DNA of 64,000 nucleotides from an uncultured Gemmatimonadales bacterium (GCA_963730185.1 CAVSQW010000012.1:352001-416000); one strand, 5' to 3'; shown: positions 1,924 to 15,709, numbered from the stretch's first letter. Numbers and translations are program-made. Notes: generated by a model from the letters alone, not told the origin.

Positions 1924-2412
1924 CTAGCCCTCCACGTAGCGGGACGACAAGGTCTGCTTGATCCGGTGCAGACGCACCCCGATCGCCCCGGGACTGGTTC
2001 CCACCACGTCGCTGATCTGCTGGTGCGTCAGCCCCTCCATGTACAGCACCAGCACCGAGCGATCGATGGGCCCCAAGGCGGCCAGGAAGGACCGGAGCAA
2101 GCTCGCGTCGCGATCGGCATCGCCGAAGGGTGGACCGGCCGCGTCATGGTCCGGATCGGCCGGGACCTCACGGCGCGTCCGGCGGGTCGACTGCCGCCGG
2201 TGGCTCAAGGCGGTGTTCAACGCCACTCGATACACCCAGGTCCCGAGCGTAGCCCGCCCCTCAAACGACGGGAGGCTCCGCCAGAGCTGGAAGAGGATCT
2301 CCTGGTGGAGGTCGTCGCGGTCGGCCTCGTCGTCCGCGTAGGTCCGGGCGATCCGCCAAAGCGCCGCTCCATACTCGCTGAGGATCTCCCGCAGCGGACG
2401 ATCATCGGTCAC
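1924..2412 (-). CDS. ECF-type RNA polymerase sigma-70 factor
   Basis: DRDDLHQEILFQLWRS..F.GR...TWVYRVALN (region 2) and LYMEGLTHQQISDVVG..PGAIGVRLHRIK (region 4); GTG 2412 chosen, ATG 2457 is an alternative. Confidence 0.92.
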   Translation of the reverse strand: MTDDRPLREILSEYGAALWRIARTYADDEADRDDLHQEILFQLWRSLPSFEGRATLGTWVYRVALNTALSHRRQSTRRTRREVPADPDHDAAGPPFGDADRDASLLRSFLAALGPIDRSVLVLYMEGLTHQQISDVVGTSPGAIGVRLHRIKQTLSSRYVEG

Positions 2413-2490
2413 TCGTGGCTCGCTTCCGGCATGGCGCCTCCTGCCCGTTCTCTTCATTGGTCGCCGGCCGACAGGAACACTTACATGATA

Positions 2491-2737
2491 GTGATTCGTG
2501 AGTGGGGACTGGTGAGTGGGGAGGGAGTGGGGACTGGTGAGTGGGGAGGGAGTGGGGACTGGTGAATGGGGAGGGAGTGGGGACTGGTGAGTGGGAAGGG
2601 AGTAGGGAGTGGGAGTAGGGATTAGTGCGTGGGGAGGGGGGAGCGTGAGTTGGGACACGCGAAAGGAGCGGGACCGGAACCGGCCCCGCCCTACTCACGA
2701 CCCCCTACTCACTCCCTAGTCACTACTCACGAGTCAC
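2491..2737. repeat. G-rich tandem repeat (4 x 25 bp, 2501-2600) inside an element bounded by ~36-bp imperfect inverted repeats
   Basis: Unit agtggggactggtgagtggggaggg at 2501, 2526, 2551, 2576; C-rich 2702-2737 is the reverse complement of 2491-2526 at about 28/36 positions. Confidence 0.8.
2662..2692 (-). terminator. Probable intrinsic terminator of the porin operon
   Basis: GC hairpin gcgggaccgg-aa-ccggccccgc followed on the - strand by a short T run, ~50 nt after the stop at 2744. Confidence 0.4.
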
Positions 2738-2743
2738 AAATCA

Positions 2744-3334
2744 CTACTTGTAAAGAGCCTGATAGAGGGCCAACCCCCGTCCCACGGCCTTGGTAAGCTC
2801 CTGGGCCACATAGTACGGCATCGCACCGAGCTCGGCCTTGGACACGCCATGGAGAGCGACGCCGACGTCGTCGCCCGGGTGCATCCCGCCGAAATGGTCG
2901 AGCAAACGCGCCTTGATCGCCTTCTCGACCCAGGGCTTGGTCTCCACGGTGGCCTTGGTCGCCACCACCTTGGTCACGGTCCCGGACGGGTCGACCGTCA
3001 CCCCTACCTCGAACGGTCCGTGCTGGGTGTTGACCTGGGGGAAGAACACCACGCCGGCCGCGCCGCCGTCGGACGTCTTGCCATAGTAGAACTTGAATTC
3101 GTCCTCATCGGGCGTGAAGTCGGCGGCCCGGTGGATCGCGGCGAGCGCTTCCTTGCCGATCTTCACGTCGCGGACGAAGAAACTCCGGGCCTCGGGCAGC
3201 GTGGCCTTGATGACGTCGGCCTGCTTGTTCAGGACCACGGTCGGGGTGATGTGCCAGGCCGCGGCGCCCATGACGAGCGCGGCGACCGGCAGGGTCAGGG
3301 CCAGACGGGCCCGGCGAATCAACGACACGGTCAT
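2744..3334 (-). CDS. Exported protein resembling RnfG/NqrC-type FMN-binding domains but lacking the SGAT motif
   Basis: ATG 3334 with AGGAGG RBS and ATGA overlap; N-terminal hydrophobic helix; NTQHGPFEVGVTVDPSGTVTKV segment. Confidence 0.6.
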   Translation of the reverse strand: MTVSLIRRARLALTLPVAALVMGAAAWHITPTVVLNKQADVIKATLPEARSFFVRDVKIGKEALAAIHRAADFTPDEDEFKFYYGKTSDGGAAGVVFFPQVNTQHGPFEVGVTVDPSGTVTKVVATKATVETKPWVEKAIKARLLDHFGGMHPGDDVGVALHGVSKAELGAMPYYVAQELTKAVGRGLALYQALYK

Positions 3335-3888
3335 GCCAACCTCCTTGACGAGCGTCCCGGCAGGATCCGTCGGACGGTCGCCACCAGGATGATGAGATAG
3401 ACCAGCGCCATGCCCCACCCGGACGCGATGGTGAGCCAGGCGAAGCCCGGGATGCCGGCCTTCATGAGCCACTGGCCGGCGAAGTCGAGCGCGCCAAAGC
3501 CGAACGCGCCCAGAATCAGGGTATTGCGACGCGCCGCGGACCACTCGAGCCCCAGAATGATCAGGGTCTCGAGTGCGCCCACGATCGCGTAGATCATGAT
3601 GTGGATATGACTGTCCTGGATCAGCAGGTTGGTGTCCACCGCGTGCTTCTCTTCGGTCATGTTGCCGAGATCGAGCGGCGCGTTGGTCACCTGGGACTCG
3701 GCGGGCAGCGCCGTCGCGTCCATCCCGGGCTGTGGCACGTAGGTGGCCGCGACCGCCGACGGCGTCGTCCCCGCCCAATGCCGCACCATCAGGAAGGCGA
3801 ACACGTACGAGTACCCCAGCACCAACAGAAACAGGAGGGCGCCGAGCTTGACCGACGAGTCCGCGTTCCTGAGGCTATAGAGCCCCAT
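3331..3888 (-). CDS. Uncharacterised integral membrane protein (~4 TM, HxH motif)
   Basis: ATG 3888 after GGAGG; hydrophobic helices; LLIQDSHIHIM. Confidence 0.7.
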   Translation of the reverse strand: MGLYSLRNADSSVKLGALLFLLVLGYSYVFAFLMVRHWAGTTPSAVAATYVPQPGMDATALPAESQVTNAPLDLGNMTEEKHAVDTNLLIQDSHIHIMIYAIVGALETLIILGLEWSAARRNTLILGAFGFGALDFAGQWLMKAGIPGFAWLTIASGWGMALVYLIILVATVRRILPGRSSRRLA

Positions 3889-3902
3889 CTGAGTGCCTCC
3901 GT

Positions 3903-5045
3903 TCAAAAGACGGTAACCACCTGGAGTCCGAATTCCAGCCCGTAGTTGCTCAGCGTGTCCCCGCCGGTCGGAAAAGCGAGCTCGCTCGAGTGGTTGAGCC
4001 GCATCTCCGCGCGGAGCTGAAAGCGGGGAATGCGGAAGGTCGTGTGCTCGACGTTGGCGAAGATCCCCTCCCGCCCGGAGCCGAGGAAGAAGACCGGCGC
4101 CACGGTGTAGGACTGGAGGGTTTGGGCCACCCCGCTCCGCGCTCCGTCAGGATCGTCGAACACCTCGGCCCGGAACGTCAGCCCGAAGCGCCGCTCCAGC
4201 CGACCGAAGACGGTGAGCAGGGCGCCCTTCCAGGTCGCGGTGCTGCCATCCTCGAGCACGTTGCGATCGCCGCCCAGGTTCGCCTCCCCGGCGATGATCA
4301 ACCCCGCCTTGGGCTGGACGGCATAGTCGACGTTCATGAGGTAACGGTTGTGGGTGTCGCCCTGATCGCCCTCCACCCCATAGACGCCGCTCACGCCCAG
4401 GCTGCTGTTGGCCGAGGGCAGGAGCCCGAGCCGGAGCATGCCGGTCTTGCCATGGTTGGGATCCACCTGCGAGTCCCACCCGTTGGAGATCACCCCGGTC
4501 AGGTCGGCTTTGGGCGACATCGCCCAGCGACCCACCAGGCCCACGAACTTGCCGGGGCGCCCCAGCTCGTAGTTGTAGGACGTGGAGGCCTGGAGGTTGA
4601 GCGGCTCGTCGTCCCGCTCGAACCCGAGCGGCGCGTCGAGCTTGCCGAAGCTCAGGCTCACGTTGCTCGCCCCCGGCATCACGAAGTTCACCAGGAGGTT
4701 GTCGATCTCGGTCGAGGTCGCCACGTCGCCGCCGGCATCACCCTGTTCCAGCGCGGTCGTCAGCTGCCCGAAGAACCAGATGTGGTCGTTGATCTCGCGA
4801 AACGCCGACAGCGCCACCTTGCCGGCCTGGAAGGTGTTGTCGTGGGTTCGGGCGTCGAAATGGAAGGTCCCGACGCCGAACCCGGTGATCTGGAGCGGCC
4901 GGCTGCTCTCGCCGGTCAGGTCCTCGAGGTTCTGGTCACCGCCGAGCGCCACCGGCCGGTCCTGCGCCAGGGCCGAGGCGGGTCGGGCGACGAAGAACGC
5001 GAGACCCACGGCGCCGGCCGCGAGACCCACAGAAAGTCGAAACAC
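3903..5045 (-). CDS. Outer-membrane beta-barrel porin (BBP2/DUF1597-like)
   Basis: Signal peptide, amphipathic beta strands, SFGKLDAPLGFE, NGWD, RAEVFDD, C-terminal LQVVTVF; GGAGGA RBS. Confidence 0.82.
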   Translation of the reverse strand: MFRLSVGLAAGAVGLAFFVARPASALAQDRPVALGGDQNLEDLTGESSRPLQITGFGVGTFHFDARTHDNTFQAGKVALSAFREINDHIWFFGQLTTALEQGDAGGDVATSTEIDNLLVNFVMPGASNVSLSFGKLDAPLGFERDDEPLNLQASTSYNYELGRPGKFVGLVGRWAMSPKADLTGVISNGWDSQVDPNHGKTGMLRLGLLPSANSSLGVSGVYGVEGDQGDTHNRYLMNVDYAVQPKAGLIIAGEANLGGDRNVLEDGSTATWKGALLTVFGRLERRFGLTFRAEVFDDPDGARSGVAQTLQSYTVAPVFFLGSGREGIFANVEHTTFRIPRFQLRAEMRLNHSSELAFPTGGDTLSNYGLEFGLQVVTVF

Positions 5046-5051
5046 GGATGT

Positions 5052-5163
5052 CCTCCGTTTGGTAGCCTGCTCTATGACCGCGATCCGTCCGGCGCGCGGC
5101 CGGGCACAGAACGCATCGGTTGATTGATCGAAAGGGTACGGTCGGCTACGCGAGACGCGGAGG
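5052..5163 (-). promoter_or_regulatory. Shine-Dalgarno-sequestering stem-loop (putative translational attenuator)
   Basis: Nested complementary pairs: 5158-5163 with 5052-5057 (SD), 5144-5149 with 5062-5067, 5139-5143 with 5076-5080. Confidence 0.65.
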
Positions 5164-5532
5164 GGGGTGGTCGACGGCGGGTTCGTGCGACTGGAGGGTC
5201 AGGGCCGCGGGGGCCGCCGATCCGAGCGCCGCGTCCGACTCAGCCAGCGCCAACTCGGCGTGGGTGGGAAGGGCGGGCGGCAGCACCGCGGCGATCGTCA
5301 CTTGCGGCGTCGTCAGCTGCCGAGAATGACAGGACGGCGTCCCGGGTGCGCCGGGACCCTGGTGATTCATGGGTCCCGGCATCGAAGCCTGGGAATGTGA
5401 CGCCATCTCGTGCCCCTGCGACAGGCACATCAGGGTACACACGATGGCCGGGTGCGCCACGAGGAACGTGACGCACAGCACCAGCGACGCGAAACGCGTC
5501 CGCCGGGACCGTTGGTGGCGCGGGAGAGCCAT
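5146..5532 (-). CDS. CutF/DUF2946-like leader protein (signal/TM, CxxxC, His/Met-rich, C-terminal PPPR)
   Basis: Basic N-terminus plus hydrophobic helix, CTLMC, HEMASHSQASMPGPMNH, ends EPAVDHPPPRLA. Confidence 0.68.
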   Translation of the reverse strand: MALPRHQRSRRTRFASLVLCVTFLVAHPAIVCTLMCLSQGHEMASHSQASMPGPMNHQGPGAPGTPSCHSRQLTTPQVTIAAVLPPALPTHAELALAESDAALGSAAPAALTLQSHEPAVDHPPPRLA

Positions 5533-5588
5533 GCTGATAAGCTAACGCCGACCGGCGCCCCCCGTCCAACCGGGGCCCTGAGTTCCGC

Positions 5589-6473
5589 TCAGAGGGCCTC
5601 CACCACCACCTGAGCCGCGATCTCGCCGGACCGCCGGCTGTCGAGAAGCGGGAGGACCGTCCCGGCCGTCTTGGTCTCGGCGATGGTGTTCAGGTTGAGC
5701 GACCCGATCACCATGCTCTCCTGGTTCGGGAGCCCCTCCGCCAGGATGCCGTCTCGGGAAAACTCGAAGTCGCTCGGAGTCAGGATCGCCGCCTGGCCGT
5801 AGTTGAGCGACACCGCCGGCACCATCGGCAGCGAGCCGACGGTGTGGGCCACCATCACGTACATCTGATTCTCGATGGCCCGGGCATGGGCGCAGTAGCG
5901 GACCCGGAGCATGCCCTGGCGGTCGTCGGTGCAGCTGGGGACGGCCAGGATATGGACGTTCTCGCGGGCGGCGGCCCGGACGATCTCGGGGAACTCGACG
6001 TCGTAGCAGATCGCCACGGCCAGCCGGCCGAACGCGGTCTCGAACACCTTGAGCGCCGACCGGGGCTTGATCTCCCACTCCTCCGCTTCGAACCGGGTCA
6101 TGTGGAGCTTGCCCTGGACCCGGTGCTCGCCGTCGGGGCCGAAAACGTAGCAGTCGTTGTGGACGGCTCCGCCATTGTCCAGCACCGGAATGGTGCCGCC
6201 CACCAGGTAGATCCGGCGGGTCCTGGCCAAGCCGCTCATCATCTCCACGAAGCGCGGTACCTGCCGGGCCAGGTCGCGGACCTGCTCGGGCATGGGCCGC
6301 TTCACGTCGCCCAGGGTAAGGAGCTGGACCGTGAAGTACTCGGGAAAGACCAGGAGCTGACACTTGTTGTCGACCGCGGTGTCGACCAGCGACTCGACCT
6401 GGTCCTCGAACTCCTCGAACTTGGCCACCGGTCGGATGTAGTACTGGAGCGCGGCGACCCTGATCCGATCCAT
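5589..6473 (-). CDS. Carbon-nitrogen hydrolase (nitrilase superfamily)
   Basis: MDRIRVAALQY; LLVFPEY, QGKLHM, AICYDVEFPE (E-K-C triad), ARAIENQ. Confidence 0.93.
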   Translation of the reverse strand: MDRIRVAALQYYIRPVAKFEEFEDQVESLVDTAVDNKCQLLVFPEYFTVQLLTLGDVKRPMPEQVRDLARQVPRFVEMMSGLARTRRIYLVGGTIPVLDNGGAVHNDCYVFGPDGEHRVQGKLHMTRFEAEEWEIKPRSALKVFETAFGRLAVAICYDVEFPEIVRAAARENVHILAVPSCTDDRQGMLRVRYCAHARAIENQMYVMVAHTVGSLPMVPAVSLNYGQAAILTPSDFEFSRDGILAEGLPNQESMVIGSLNLNTIAETKTAGTVLPLLDSRRSGEIAAQVVVEAL

Positions 6474-12844: not shown

Positions 12845-15709
12845 ATGGTGACCTCCCCGCCGCGGGCACCGGCCCGCTCAGGCCACCCCAGCCGCTCGTT
12901 CCGAGCGGTCTGGCGCCGACTGGCGCTGGTCGCGGCGTTCGGATCCGCTCCGCTTGGGTTGGCTGCGGCGCAGCAGCAGATCACCCAGGCCGATCCCAAC
13001 CCCCACGGCAAGCTCAATACCCCGTGCGCCACCTGTCACACGGCGGACGGGTGGAAGCCGGCCCGGATCGACCGGACTTTCGATCACGGAAAGACCGGCT
13101 TTCCGCTGGTGGAGTCGCACGCGGCCGTCGCCTGCACCAGCTGCCACACCTCGCTCGAGTTCTCCAATGCCCCGATCGCCTGCGCTTCCTGTCACCAGGA
13201 CGTGCACCAGGGCGAGTTCGGGACCACCTGCGACCAGTGCCACAACGCCCGGGCGTTCAACGACCGGACCGCGATGGCGCAGAACCACGCGCTCACCCGC
13301 TTTCCGCTCGATGGTGCCCACCGTGACGTCGACTGTCGGAGTTGTCATGCCTCGTCCGGCGGGGGCACGTTGGCTTTCAAGGGCGCGCCGACTCAATGCG
13401 TCGGGTGCCACCAGGCCGACTATGCCCGCACTACCACGCCGCCGCACAAGGCGTCGGGGTTCCCGACGGATTGCACTACCTGTCACACCAACCTGACGTG
13501 GCAGGGAAGCGGCTTCGATCACAACACAACCCAGTTCCCGCTCACCGGCGCGCACCAGGCGGCCGTGTGCCAGGACTGCCACCAGGACGGCATCTACAAG
13601 GGCAAGTCGACCACCTGCGTCAGCTGCCACCAGACCAACTACGACCAGACCGCGACCCCGCCCCACAAGAGCGCGGGATTCGCAACCGACTGCGTCACCT
13701 GCCACACCACCGTCACCTGGCAGGGGGCACAGTTCGACCACAACACCACCCAGTTCCCGCTCACCGGCGGGCACCAGGCCGCCGCCTGTCAGGACTGCCA
13801 CAGGAACGGCGTCTACAAAGGCCTGGCCGCCACTTGCGTGAGCTGCCACCAGACCGACTTCGACAAGACCACCAACCCGAACCACCGGTCGGCCAGCTTT
13901 CCGACCGATTGCACCACCTGCCACACCACCATCACCTGGCAGGGCGCGACGTTCGACCACAACACCACCCAGTTCCCGCTGACCGGGGCCCACCAGGCCA
14001 CGGCCTGTCAGGACTGCCACAAGAACGGGGTCTACAAGGGGCTGGCCACTACCTGCGTGAGCTGCCACCAGACCGACTACAACACCACCACCACGCCCAA
14101 TCACCAGTCGGCCGGGTTCCCGACCGACTGCACCACCTGCCACACCACCGTCACCTGGCAGGGGGCACAGTTCGACCACAACACCACCCAGTTCCCGCTG
14201 ACCGGGGCCCACCAGGCCACGGCCTGCCAGGACTGCCACAAGAACGGGGTCTACCAGGGGCTGGCCGCCACCTGCGTGAGCTGCCACCAGACCGATTTCA
14301 ACACCACCACCAACCCGAACCACCAATCGGCCGGGTTCCCGACCGACTGCGTCACCTGCCACACCACCGTCACTTGGCAGGGAGCACAGTTCGATCACAA
14401 CAGCACCCAGTTCCCGCTAACCGGGGCCCACCAGGCCACGGCCTGTCAGGACTGCCACAAGAACGGGGTCTACAAGGGGCTGGCCACCACCTGCGTGAGC
14501 TGCCACCAGACCGACTACAACACCACCACCAACCCGAACCACCAGTCGGCCGGGTTCCCGACCGACTGCGTCACCTGCCACACCACCGTCACTTGGCAGG
14601 GAGCACAGTTCGATCACAACACCACCCAGTTCCCGCTGACCGGGGCCCACCAGGCCACGGCCTGTCAGGACTGCCACAAGAACGGGGTCTACAAGGGGCT
14701 GGCCACTACCTGCGTGAGCTGCCACCAGACCGACTACAACACCACCACCACGCCCAATCACCAGTCGGCCGGCTTCCCGACCGACTGCACCACCTGCCAC
14801 ACCACCGTCACCTGGCAGGGGGCCGCGTTCGATCACAACAGCACCCAGTTCCCGCTAACCGGGGCCCACCAGGCCACGGCCTGTCAGGACTGCCACAAGA
14901 ACGGGGTCTACAAGGGGCTGGCCACCACCTGCGTGAGCTGCCACCAGACCGACTACAACACCACCACCAACCCGAACCACCAGTCGGCCGGCTTCCCGAC
15001 CGACTGCACCACCTGCCACACCACGGTCACCTGGGTCGGGGCGCAGTTCGATCACAACAGCACCCAGTTCCCGCTGACCGGGGCCCACCAGGCCACGGCC
15101 TGTCAGGACTGCCACAAGAACGGGGTCTACAAGGGGCTGGCCACCACCTGCGTGAGCTGCCACCAGACCGACTACAACACCACCACCAACCCGAACCACC
15201 AGTCGGCCGGCTTCCCGACCGACTGCACCACCTGCCACACCACGGTCACCTGGCAGGGGGCCTCGTTCGATCACAGCACCACCGCGTTCCCGCTCACCGG
15301 CGTGCACACCACGACGCCGTGCCAGGACTGCCACACGAACGGGATCTACAAGGGGCTGCCGAGCACCTGTGTGAGCTGCCACCAGACCGACTACAACAAC
15401 ACCACCAACCCGAACCACACCGCGGCCGGGTTCCCGACGGACTGCGTCTCGTGTCACACGACCTCGACCTGGCTGGGCGCGCAATTCGACCACGACGGCC
15501 AGTACTTCCCGATCTACTCGGGCAAGCATCGGGGGCAGTGGAACGCGTGCTCCGATTGTCACCAGAACTCGTCGTCGTACGCCGTGTTCACCTGTCTCAC
15601 CTGTCACGAGCACAGCAAGTCGCGGATGGACAGCGAGCATCAAGGACGGTCAGGCTACGTCTACGACAGCCAGGCGTGCTACAGCTGCCATCCGAGAGGG
15701 CGGTCGTGA
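12845..15709 (+). CDS. Giant multiheme c-type cytochrome, 37 CxxCH motifs, triheme repeats
   Basis: Counted 37 CxxCH in 954 aa; Sec-type signal ending LAAA-Q; repeats FDH..FPL.G.H..CxxCH..CxxCH..H..CxxCH. Confidence 0.95.
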   Translation: MVTSPPRAPARSGHPSRSFRAVWRRLALVAAFGSAPLGLAAAQQQITQADPNPHGKLNTPCATCHTADGWKPARIDRTFDHGKTGFPLVESHAAVACTSCHTSLEFSNAPIACASCHQDVHQGEFGTTCDQCHNARAFNDRTAMAQNHALTRFPLDGAHRDVDCRSCHASSGGGTLAFKGAPTQCVGCHQADYARTTTPPHKASGFPTDCTTCHTNLTWQGSGFDHNTTQFPLTGAHQAAVCQDCHQDGIYKGKSTTCVSCHQTNYDQTATPPHKSAGFATDCVTCHTTVTWQGAQFDHNTTQFPLTGGHQAAACQDCHRNGVYKGLAATCVSCHQTDFDKTTNPNHRSASFPTDCTTCHTTITWQGATFDHNTTQFPLTGAHQATACQDCHKNGVYKGLATTCVSCHQTDYNTTTTPNHQSAGFPTDCTTCHTTVTWQGAQFDHNTTQFPLTGAHQATACQDCHKNGVYQGLAATCVSCHQTDFNTTTNPNHQSAGFPTDCVTCHTTVTWQGAQFDHNSTQFPLTGAHQATACQDCHKNGVYKGLATTCVSCHQTDYNTTTNPNHQSAGFPTDCVTCHTTVTWQGAQFDHNTTQFPLTGAHQATACQDCHKNGVYKGLATTCVSCHQTDYNTTTTPNHQSAGFPTDCTTCHTTVTWQGAAFDHNSTQFPLTGAHQATACQDCHKNGVYKGLATTCVSCHQTDYNTTTNPNHQSAGFPTDCTTCHTTVTWVGAQFDHNSTQFPLTGAHQATACQDCHKNGVYKGLATTCVSCHQTDYNTTTNPNHQSAGFPTDCTTCHTTVTWQGASFDHSTTAFPLTGVHTTTPCQDCHTNGIYKGLPSTCVSCHQTDYNNTTNPNHTAAGFPTDCVSCHTTSTWLGAQFDHDGQYFPIYSGKHRGQWNACSDCHQNSSSYAVFTCLTCHEHSKSRMDSEHQGRSGYVYDSQACYSCHPRGRS
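13514..15484 (+). repeat. Intragenic tandem repeat, 9 x 219 bp (73 aa, 3 hemes each)
   Basis: FDH codons start at 13514, 13733, 13952, 14171, 14390, 14609, 14828, 15047, 15266; central units nearly identical in DNA. Confidence 0.95.

Follow-up and report, generated by a model that had tools for sequence, protein, structure and literature searches.

The closest described counterparts of the locus analysed here are CutF, CruR and the SecM/MifM/ApdP-type arrest peptides; the comparison draws on the available parts of seven sources (PMC9973294, bioRxiv 10.1101/2025.02.05.636593, PMC8456105, PMC9426467, PMC10987492, PMC12697547 and PMC12992588). CutF is the small exported CxxxC peptide encoded first in the Rhodobacter capsulatus cutFOG operon (PMC9973294, PMC8456105). 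An mRNA helix hides the next gene's Shine-Dalgarno (SD) sequence and is opened by a paused ribosome, although the proline tail of CutF alone is described as no strong arrest sequence (PMC9973294). CruR of Bordetella pertussis (Bp2923) stands before an outer-membrane import gene and ends in a C-terminal Pro-Pro; it carries CxxC and RAPP motifs, keeps a conserved spacing between cysteine and stall site (C93 precedes the last Pro by 49 residues) and works through Rho termination (PMC9426467). Its arrest has been shown in vitro (PMC12992588). The SecM/MifM/ApdP-type peptides combine an export signal with a C-terminal arrest site, and their stalled ribosome disrupts an SD-sequestering stem (PMC10987492).

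The window is a 64,000-nucleotide stretch from an uncultured Gemmatimonadales bacterium, in which the initial annotation had proposed a CutF-like leader controlling a porin operon by a stall-coupled anti-SD switch. Comparative data and a PPPRL tail common to CutF and the window leader (PMC8456105) give this proposal good support, whereas the position of the CxxxC motif departs from CutF. As in CutF, the leader would be a small exported CxxxC peptide, first in its operon, with a predicted mRNA helix that hides the SD of the next gene and would be opened by a paused ribosome. It also has several of the properties used to define CutF-like proteins (Ozturk 2023): fewer than 150 residues with PP in the last 15 (128 aa, PPP at 123–125), a short distance to the next gene (100 nt here; median 98, range 35–249 in 76 loci), cysteines (C32 and C36 invariant, C68 in at least 90% of 58 rows). 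Like CutF itself, it has by computation an SD-shielding helix, which is weaker in the window locus. The CxxxC motif, however, is central in CutF (C73, 43 residues before the last Pro), while here it comes after the signal and precedes the last Pro by 89 residues. The position that is fixed here is a single Cys-His at 57 residues, and the Cys motifs stand in reverse order; CTLMC does not correspond in position to the central CxxxC of CutF, the residue held at a fixed distance being C68. The SD-shielding stem of CutF is described as intergenic with the anti-SD CTTC, whereas here the Pro codons themselves are the anti-SD. The target is a multicopper oxidase for CutF and a BBP2 porin operon here, and the mRNA is apparently leaderless, unlike that of CutF.

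CruR resembles the window locus in its import-type target, its Pro-Pro end and its Cys-to-stall-site spacing, which is shorter; the evidence here points to SD occlusion instead of Rho termination. The pattern of DUF2946 proteins (CxxC and RAPP, 45 residues apart) was not found, R[AG]PP occurring in 1 of 96 leaders, and the profile check for DUF2946 suggested earlier came out negative: none of 36 leaders reaches the 23.7-bit cut-off of PF11162 (best 10 bits) and the window leader gave no match. Unlike the SecM/MifM/ApdP type, the leaders have no RAPP/RAGP motif and carry conserved Cys/His ligands, and the genes that follow are not sec/yidC; a RAPP-type motif upstream of secA, secDF or yidC, as in Sec/YidC monitoring, is missing. 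The available main text of PMC9973294 does not name Gemmatimonadota, and the terms Gemmatimonad, porin, BBP2, PF07642 and Acidobacter have no match in three of the Ozturk 2023 supplements. A literature search that largely excluded subscription papers and the CutF protein list found no description of Pro codons acting as anti-SD or of this leader family. This class of mechanism being already known and reported to be widespread, the novelty is that of a variant and not of a kind.

The leader ORF and the loci that carry it

The leader ORF lies on the minus strand between a nitrilase-family gene (stop at 5589) and the BBP2 porin gene. Its features are:

5564-5569, minus strand: -35-like hexamer, 19-nt spacer to the -10-like hexamer (from sequence)
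5539..5544, minus strand: -10-like TANNNT hexamer, 6 nt before the leader ATG (from sequence)
5146..5532, minus strand: leader ORF, 128 aa, candidate exported Cys/His peptide with PPPR tail (from its translation and homologous leaders)
5440..5493, minus strand: hydrophobic segment of signal/TM type (residues 14-31) that follows the basic N-region (from sequence)
5425..5439, minus strand: C32-x3-C36 (CTLMC), invariant in 58 aligned group-A leaders
5326..5331, minus strand: C68-H69 with the "ruler" cysteine, which precedes the last Pro by 57 residues, a spacing conserved in group A
5158..5166, minus strand: Pro123-125 codons CCC CCU CCG, putative stall site, with the anti-SD at 5163-5158 (from codon bias and pairing tests)

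Translation of 5532..5146 confirmed the signal/TM-like segment, the CTLMC motif and the His/Met-rich linker (residues 41–57) that had been described. The HPPPR motif, given as C-terminal, is present but ends two residues before the C-terminus, the tail being VDHPPPRLA. In the family consensus the N-terminus is signal-like and A-Q-P directly precedes CxxxC. Pfam and NCBIfam scans gave no family assignment for the leader, a search with the leader profile found no second member in its own genome, and Rfam over 2400–6000 returned sub-threshold miRNA-type matches only.

The leader ATG of the window locus has no SD. A TANNNT hexamer is found 4–10 nt before the ATG in 61 of 91 ATG-starting leaders, compared to 153 of 2627 long ORFs. 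A strict sigma-70 scan predicted no promoter and one terminator-like site, at chance level. The lack of an SD together with TANNNT close before the ATG suggests that most leaders would be translated from leaderless transcripts.

Porin homologues were collected from genomes and metagenomes at 158 loci, 139 of which match the porin at E<=1e-30. A filter for same-strand ORFs with a hydrophobic stretch and PP within the last 12 residues finds a leader before the porin in 124 of the 139 loci and fires at 3 of 168 arbitrary positions. In four of the 15 loci missed the porin is at a contig edge. Nine inspected misses comprise four truncated leaders with a PP tail, one complete leader, one frameshifted leader and three porins at loci without leader; the remaining misses L090 and L144 are outside these nine. 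A single frameshift splits the leader of L048 (probably also that of L144) shortly before the tail, and may be an assembly error. Porin homologues without an upstream leader (L044, L124, L140) are natural controls for asking whether the operon is constitutive without it. The loci are partly redundant, 96 being unique around the leader stop. Judged by this sequence conservation, the leader is a real, conserved gene.

The porin loci belong mostly to Gemmatimonadales and Longimicrobiales, plus four Acidobacteriota. On the porin tree, genomes of the window's own family are interspersed among these, in keeping with a Gemmatimonadota origin. Distribution is patchy (45 of 401 genomes of the phylum), and none of 21 same-genus genomes has a close porin match (best E 6.6e-7), a pattern that points to uneven retention of the operon 2744–5532 or to its transfer. 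The leader profile has 27 matches in the 401 genomes, 19 of them at this porin. Seven of the eight found elsewhere are full leaders: five stand before a His-rich MetA-type beta-barrel and one before a TonB receptor (these six being L179-L182, L184 and L185), and one before an unannotated protein. CCU-CCN is present in six of these seven and, by eye, is paired with the SD in the MFE structure.

Predicted pairing between the proline codons and the porin Shine-Dalgarno

The elements of the mRNA around the leader stop and the porin start are:

5144..5149, minus strand: 5' arm of the stop-spanning helix, over the leader stop codon (pair probability 0.38–0.97 by folding window)
5062..5067, minus strand: 3' arm of the stop-spanning helix (MFE and pair probabilities)
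5052..5057, minus strand: porin SD CGGAGG, which doubles as the 5' arm of a local hairpin that competes with the long helix (sequence and folding)

As initially annotated, three segments are complementary in correctly nested order: CCUCCG (5163-5158) with CGGAGG (5057-5052), the PPP:SD helix; GUAGCC (5149-5144) with GGCUAC (5067-5062), the stop-spanning helix; and GACCG (5143-5139) with CGGUC (5080-5076). Folding of 5040–5175, the check suggested at the time, places the PPP:SD and stop helices in the MFE structure, but its energy is no better than that of shuffled sequences (z 0.19; 106 of 200 shuffles equally stable). Folding energy was accordingly rejected as evidence for a switch. Pair probabilities were computed over two folding windows of 136–201 nt and two longer ones, 4980–5300 and 4950–5545. 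In that order they are 0.82, 0.88, 0.21 and 0.39 for the PPP:SD helix and 0.94, 0.97, 0.38 and 0.73 for the stop helix. The third helix has 0.12–0.20 in all four and was dropped. The PPP:SD helix falls to 0.21–0.39 in the longer windows because a competing local 5-bp hairpin, which covers the SD and the porin start codon (about 5058–5044), takes 0.54–0.73. Since this hairpin re-masks the SD and the start, the predicted switch is modest at the window locus: with a ribosome at the prolines the SD-opening cost goes from 7.35 to 6.1–6.5 kcal/mol (about 6.3). With z 0.19 and a pairing that depends on the folding window, this one locus is therefore too little to rest the claim on. What exceeds chance comes from comparison among loci: leader conservation, CCU bias, SD pairing relative to controls, and flank covariation.

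The penultimate Pro codon is CCU in 60 of 85 leader PPP runs, compared to 42 of 329 PPP runs in ordinary genes. CCU makes up 74 of 1022 other leader Pro codons (7%) and 5% of Pro codons genome-wide. This rare codon at the penultimate Pro writes the anti-SD CCUCC, which 83 of 96 leaders, but only 11 of 271 control genes, carry within their final 30 nt. Pairing was tested in 76 of the 96 loci, leaving out 13 without in-frame CCUCC and 7 without GGAG at a start. The predicted pairing of SD and Pro run has P>0.5 in 42 of these 76 loci, compared to 1 of 90 control gene pairs, and is below 0.2 in 28. A ribosome footprint placed at PP lowers the computed median SD-opening cost over the 76 loci from 8.9 to 4.7 kcal/mol. 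The drop exceeds 1 kcal/mol in 63 of 76 loci; it does so in 14 of 76 when the ribosome is placed upstream, and in 25 of 90 controls. When the Pro codons are recoded in silico, the cost falls in 62 of 76 loci.

Covariation in homologous loci had been named as a further check. The flank pair, formed by the wobble position that follows CCUCC and the nucleotide preceding GGAG, is Watson-Crick in 44 of 76 loci (C-G 20, G-C 13, A-U 10), while permutation gives a mean of 23.5 and a maximum of 37. When the SD-side column was simulated on a quick porin tree, this excess was reached in 0 of 1000 runs. For the pair that closes the opposite helix end, 40 of 1000 tree simulations reached the excess, and slid registers are at chance. 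The flank thus co-varies by tree simulation, but a test on independent pairs, which is underpowered by too few informative pairs, was not significant (median p 0.5–1), so that the signal lies mainly between clades. In 22 short-spacer loci, RNAalifold recovers only this 7-bp PPP:SD helix, with two-sided compensatory changes at both ends; for a clade of 16 loci its consensus retains only 3 bp of this helix, one of them varying. A perfect complement of at least 5 bp in the stop helix is found in 38 of 76 homologues, compared to 17.8 after partner swapping (not tree-corrected).

Cysteine spacing and the downstream operon

C32, C36, P123-125 and R126 are invariant in 58 aligned group-A leaders whose mean column identity is 28%. 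CxxxC is found in 81 of 96 leaders and CxC in 15. Taking as ruler the last Cys inside an interval of 45–70 residues before the last Pro, 69 of the 71 group-A leaders have a Cys 56–60 residues ahead of that Pro (standard deviation 0.7). Counted without this interval, 62 of 71 have their nearest Cys 52–56 residues ahead of the first Pro, and in 54 of 71 a His comes next after the nearest Cys. His is abundant in the leaders (median 6–7). The distance from CxxxC to the ruler Cys varies in group A from 16 to 49, CxxxC standing 73–107 residues before the last Pro (median 82), and the Cys-to-Pro segment has a pairwise identity of 18%. In a divergent group of 25 leaders the motifs are replaced by a single Cys near the signal and a central CxC, and all 25 keep a Cys at 54–59. 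A leader profile search yielded 126 representatives with a spacing of 56–59 in 100 of 114 that could be measured, a weaker count since these were selected by profile. A length that is fixed without a fixed sequence is what a nascent-chain force sensor predicts, and 57 residues span the ribosome tunnel and SecY.

Three genes follow the leader:

3903..5045, minus strand: outer-membrane beta-barrel porin, Pfam BBP2, 380 aa, GTG start (PF07642, E 9.7e-24)
3331..3888, minus strand: four-helix membrane protein, 185 aa from ATG 3888, Aq_1264_TM-like (atlas score 0.95 to PF27139 clusters)
2744..3334, minus strand: 196-aa candidate exported protein with an RnfG/NqrC (FMN-binding) fold (predicted fold comparison)

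The membrane protein is encoded directly after the porin in 133 of 139 loci. It has invariant M36, H84, D94, H96, H98, D137 and M162 in 60 rows (numbering from 3894). Fold searches with it returned generic four-helix bundles only (best Z 9.2) and no Foldseek match at E<=0.001, and no paper was found on aq_1264 or its neighbours. The 196-aa protein is second after the porin in 122 of 139 loci. It aligns with RnfG over 137 residues (Z 11.7–11.8, rmsd 2.9) and has invariant His28 (just after the signal), His105 and Glu131. Its G-x-M-P is presumably at the position of the flavinylation motif, where flavinylated proteins carry S/T-G-A-S/T. With His28 and His105, this makes metal rather than flavin binding a reasonable guess. 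A complex of the membrane and FMN-fold proteins was predicted with a score of 0.53 (best control 0.00); the runs agree in at least 85% of contacts and the partner pLDDT is at least 85. Of 157 solved pairs 116 attain the mark used, as do 2 of 215 mismatched ones; among those attaining it, 18 solved pairs and both mismatches score at most 0.60, and the candidate complex was discarded as weak evidence.

The operon is probably metal-handling. SCO1/SenC follows it in 7 of 139 loci (5 distinct proteins), and these neighbours together with the import-type targets make copper the best single guess for the ligand. The copper link rests on a minority of operon neighbours, and a small literature listing gave no link between BBP2 and copper. 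In two loci (L024, L083) a second, paralogous leader and a TonB-dependent receptor come directly after the three-gene operon. The only SCO1/SenC match of the window's own genome is elsewhere, at G000:C7:550001-553405; the genes ahead of it look like CopC and CtaG.

Proposed switch and competing explanations

We propose that the leader ORF encodes a sensor peptide related in kind to CutF and CruR, which acts in cis and is exported during its translation. From a promoter immediately ahead of the ATG would come a leaderless mRNA covering the leader, the porin, the membrane protein and the periplasmic protein. When the 3' end of the leader is free of ribosomes, CCU-CCN is predicted to prevent initiation by pairing with the SD of the porin gene. 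A ribosome that pauses at PPP would cover the anti-SD, as the computed geometry allows, free the SD and turn the operon on; EF-P is present in the genome. With the ribosome at PPP, C68, 57 residues away, would be about at the SecY exit into the periplasm and CxxxC already outside. Binding of a metal, or a disulfide, among C32, C36, C68 and His might then alter the pull on the stalled chain and the duration of the pause. That a stall-coupled anti-SD switch operates, whatever its trigger, we consider likely from the sequence comparisons; that it is a sensor peptide switch of the CutF/CruR kind triggered by a metal appears fairly probable. For copper as the ligand the chances are about even. Import-type targets suggest, by analogy, that metal turns expression off, as for CruR although by the SD route of CutF: relief of the stall by metal, shutting off an import operon, is slightly favoured, and the CutF-like direction, in which metal turns the operon on as first supposed, falls somewhat below an even chance. 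Doubtful as a whole is the joint reading of a leaderless exported sensor family of Gemmatimonadota and Acidobacteriota in which the same nine nucleotides serve as stall site and anti-SD, a 57-residue ruler places its Cys at the periplasmic mouth of SecY, and the BBP2 porin, the His/Met four-helix protein and an FMN-fold protein that binds metal in place of flavin import copper independently of TonB, by a route not described before.

The same stall-and-unmask switch could respond to secretion capacity, in the manner of SecM, or to the disulfide/redox state of the periplasm. A signal peptide with a Pro tail is indeed SecM-type architecture (PMC10987492), and the three conserved Cys could form disulfides, as proposed in the available part of a report on CutF (bioRxiv 2025.02.05.636593). 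The targets, however, are porins, a TonB receptor and His-rich barrels instead of sec genes, and the abundance of His, its conservation after the ruler Cys and the SCO neighbours fit a metal better, so that we hold such a signal to be unlikely. The output might also be chiefly Rho-dependent termination, as for CruR, with the stalled ribosome shielding a C-rich rut site and SD pairing being secondary. The genome encodes a Rho N-terminal domain, the targets are of the import type as for CruR, and the C>G skew is 0.24–0.46 across the final 60 nt of each leader plus the 30 nt that follow, compared to about 0 in 2627 controls. This skew is largely forced by the Pro codons, and a rut site would call neither for a preference for CCU to CCC nor for covariation with the base next to the SD. 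Termination as the main output is thus quite unlikely, but Rho termination and SD occlusion can coexist through polarity.

Plain translational coupling, in which any ribosome finishing the leader melts the helix without sensing, accounts for part of the same data: a terminating ribosome covers the same bases, and the Pro run is 2–5 codons before the leader stop. It leaves the invariant cysteines, the signal segment and the 57-residue ruler unexplained, and we give it a small probability, slightly under that of Rho termination. Even the absence of any switch can be considered, the leader being an ordinary small periplasmic metal chaperone and the complementarity a by-product of its Pro codons. 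The Cys/His/Met ligands and the signal would suit a chaperone, any CCN-CCN run is partly complementary to GGAGG, and the fold z-score of 0.19 gives no reason to object; the position-specific CCU bias, the flank covariation, the fixed ruler and the 18% identity of the mature part nevertheless make this explanation very improbable.

If the stall-coupled, metal-triggered switch is true, periplasmic sensing by nascent peptides extends to an abundant soil and sediment phylum. Its design would be compact, the stall codons being the anti-SD, and synonymous changes could separate the contributions of peptide and RNA. The tight 57-residue spacing would offer a handle on a question already raised for CruR and CutF, namely by what means a ligand on the far side of the membrane exerts force on a stalled ribosome. 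The leader would also mark the conserved three-gene operon (122 of 139 loci) as a candidate metal-uptake system.

Two other leaders were noted in the genome of the window. One, in L159:1486-1840 (G000:C15:89760-90113, minus strand), looks like a canonical DUF2946-type leader with CxxC and RAPP, scores 19.2 bits, under the cut-off, and stands before an outer-membrane efflux protein gene. The third leader of the genome (G000:C8, minus strand, stop near 169346) has CxCxxxC and an LPFATAPP tail; it ends 97 nt before a gene for a 774-aa TonB-receptor-like protein, and in the MFE structure the codons at its 3' end are paired to the SD region. Within the window, a tandem repeat at 2500–2621 (25-nt unit, 4.9 copies), strongly purine/pyrimidine-skewed, separates the operon from an ECF sigma factor gene. 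A 954-aa ORF at 12845–15709 (plus strand) has many repeated CxxCH heme motifs and is followed by a beta-barrel-like frame, the two possibly forming a porin-cytochrome conduit.
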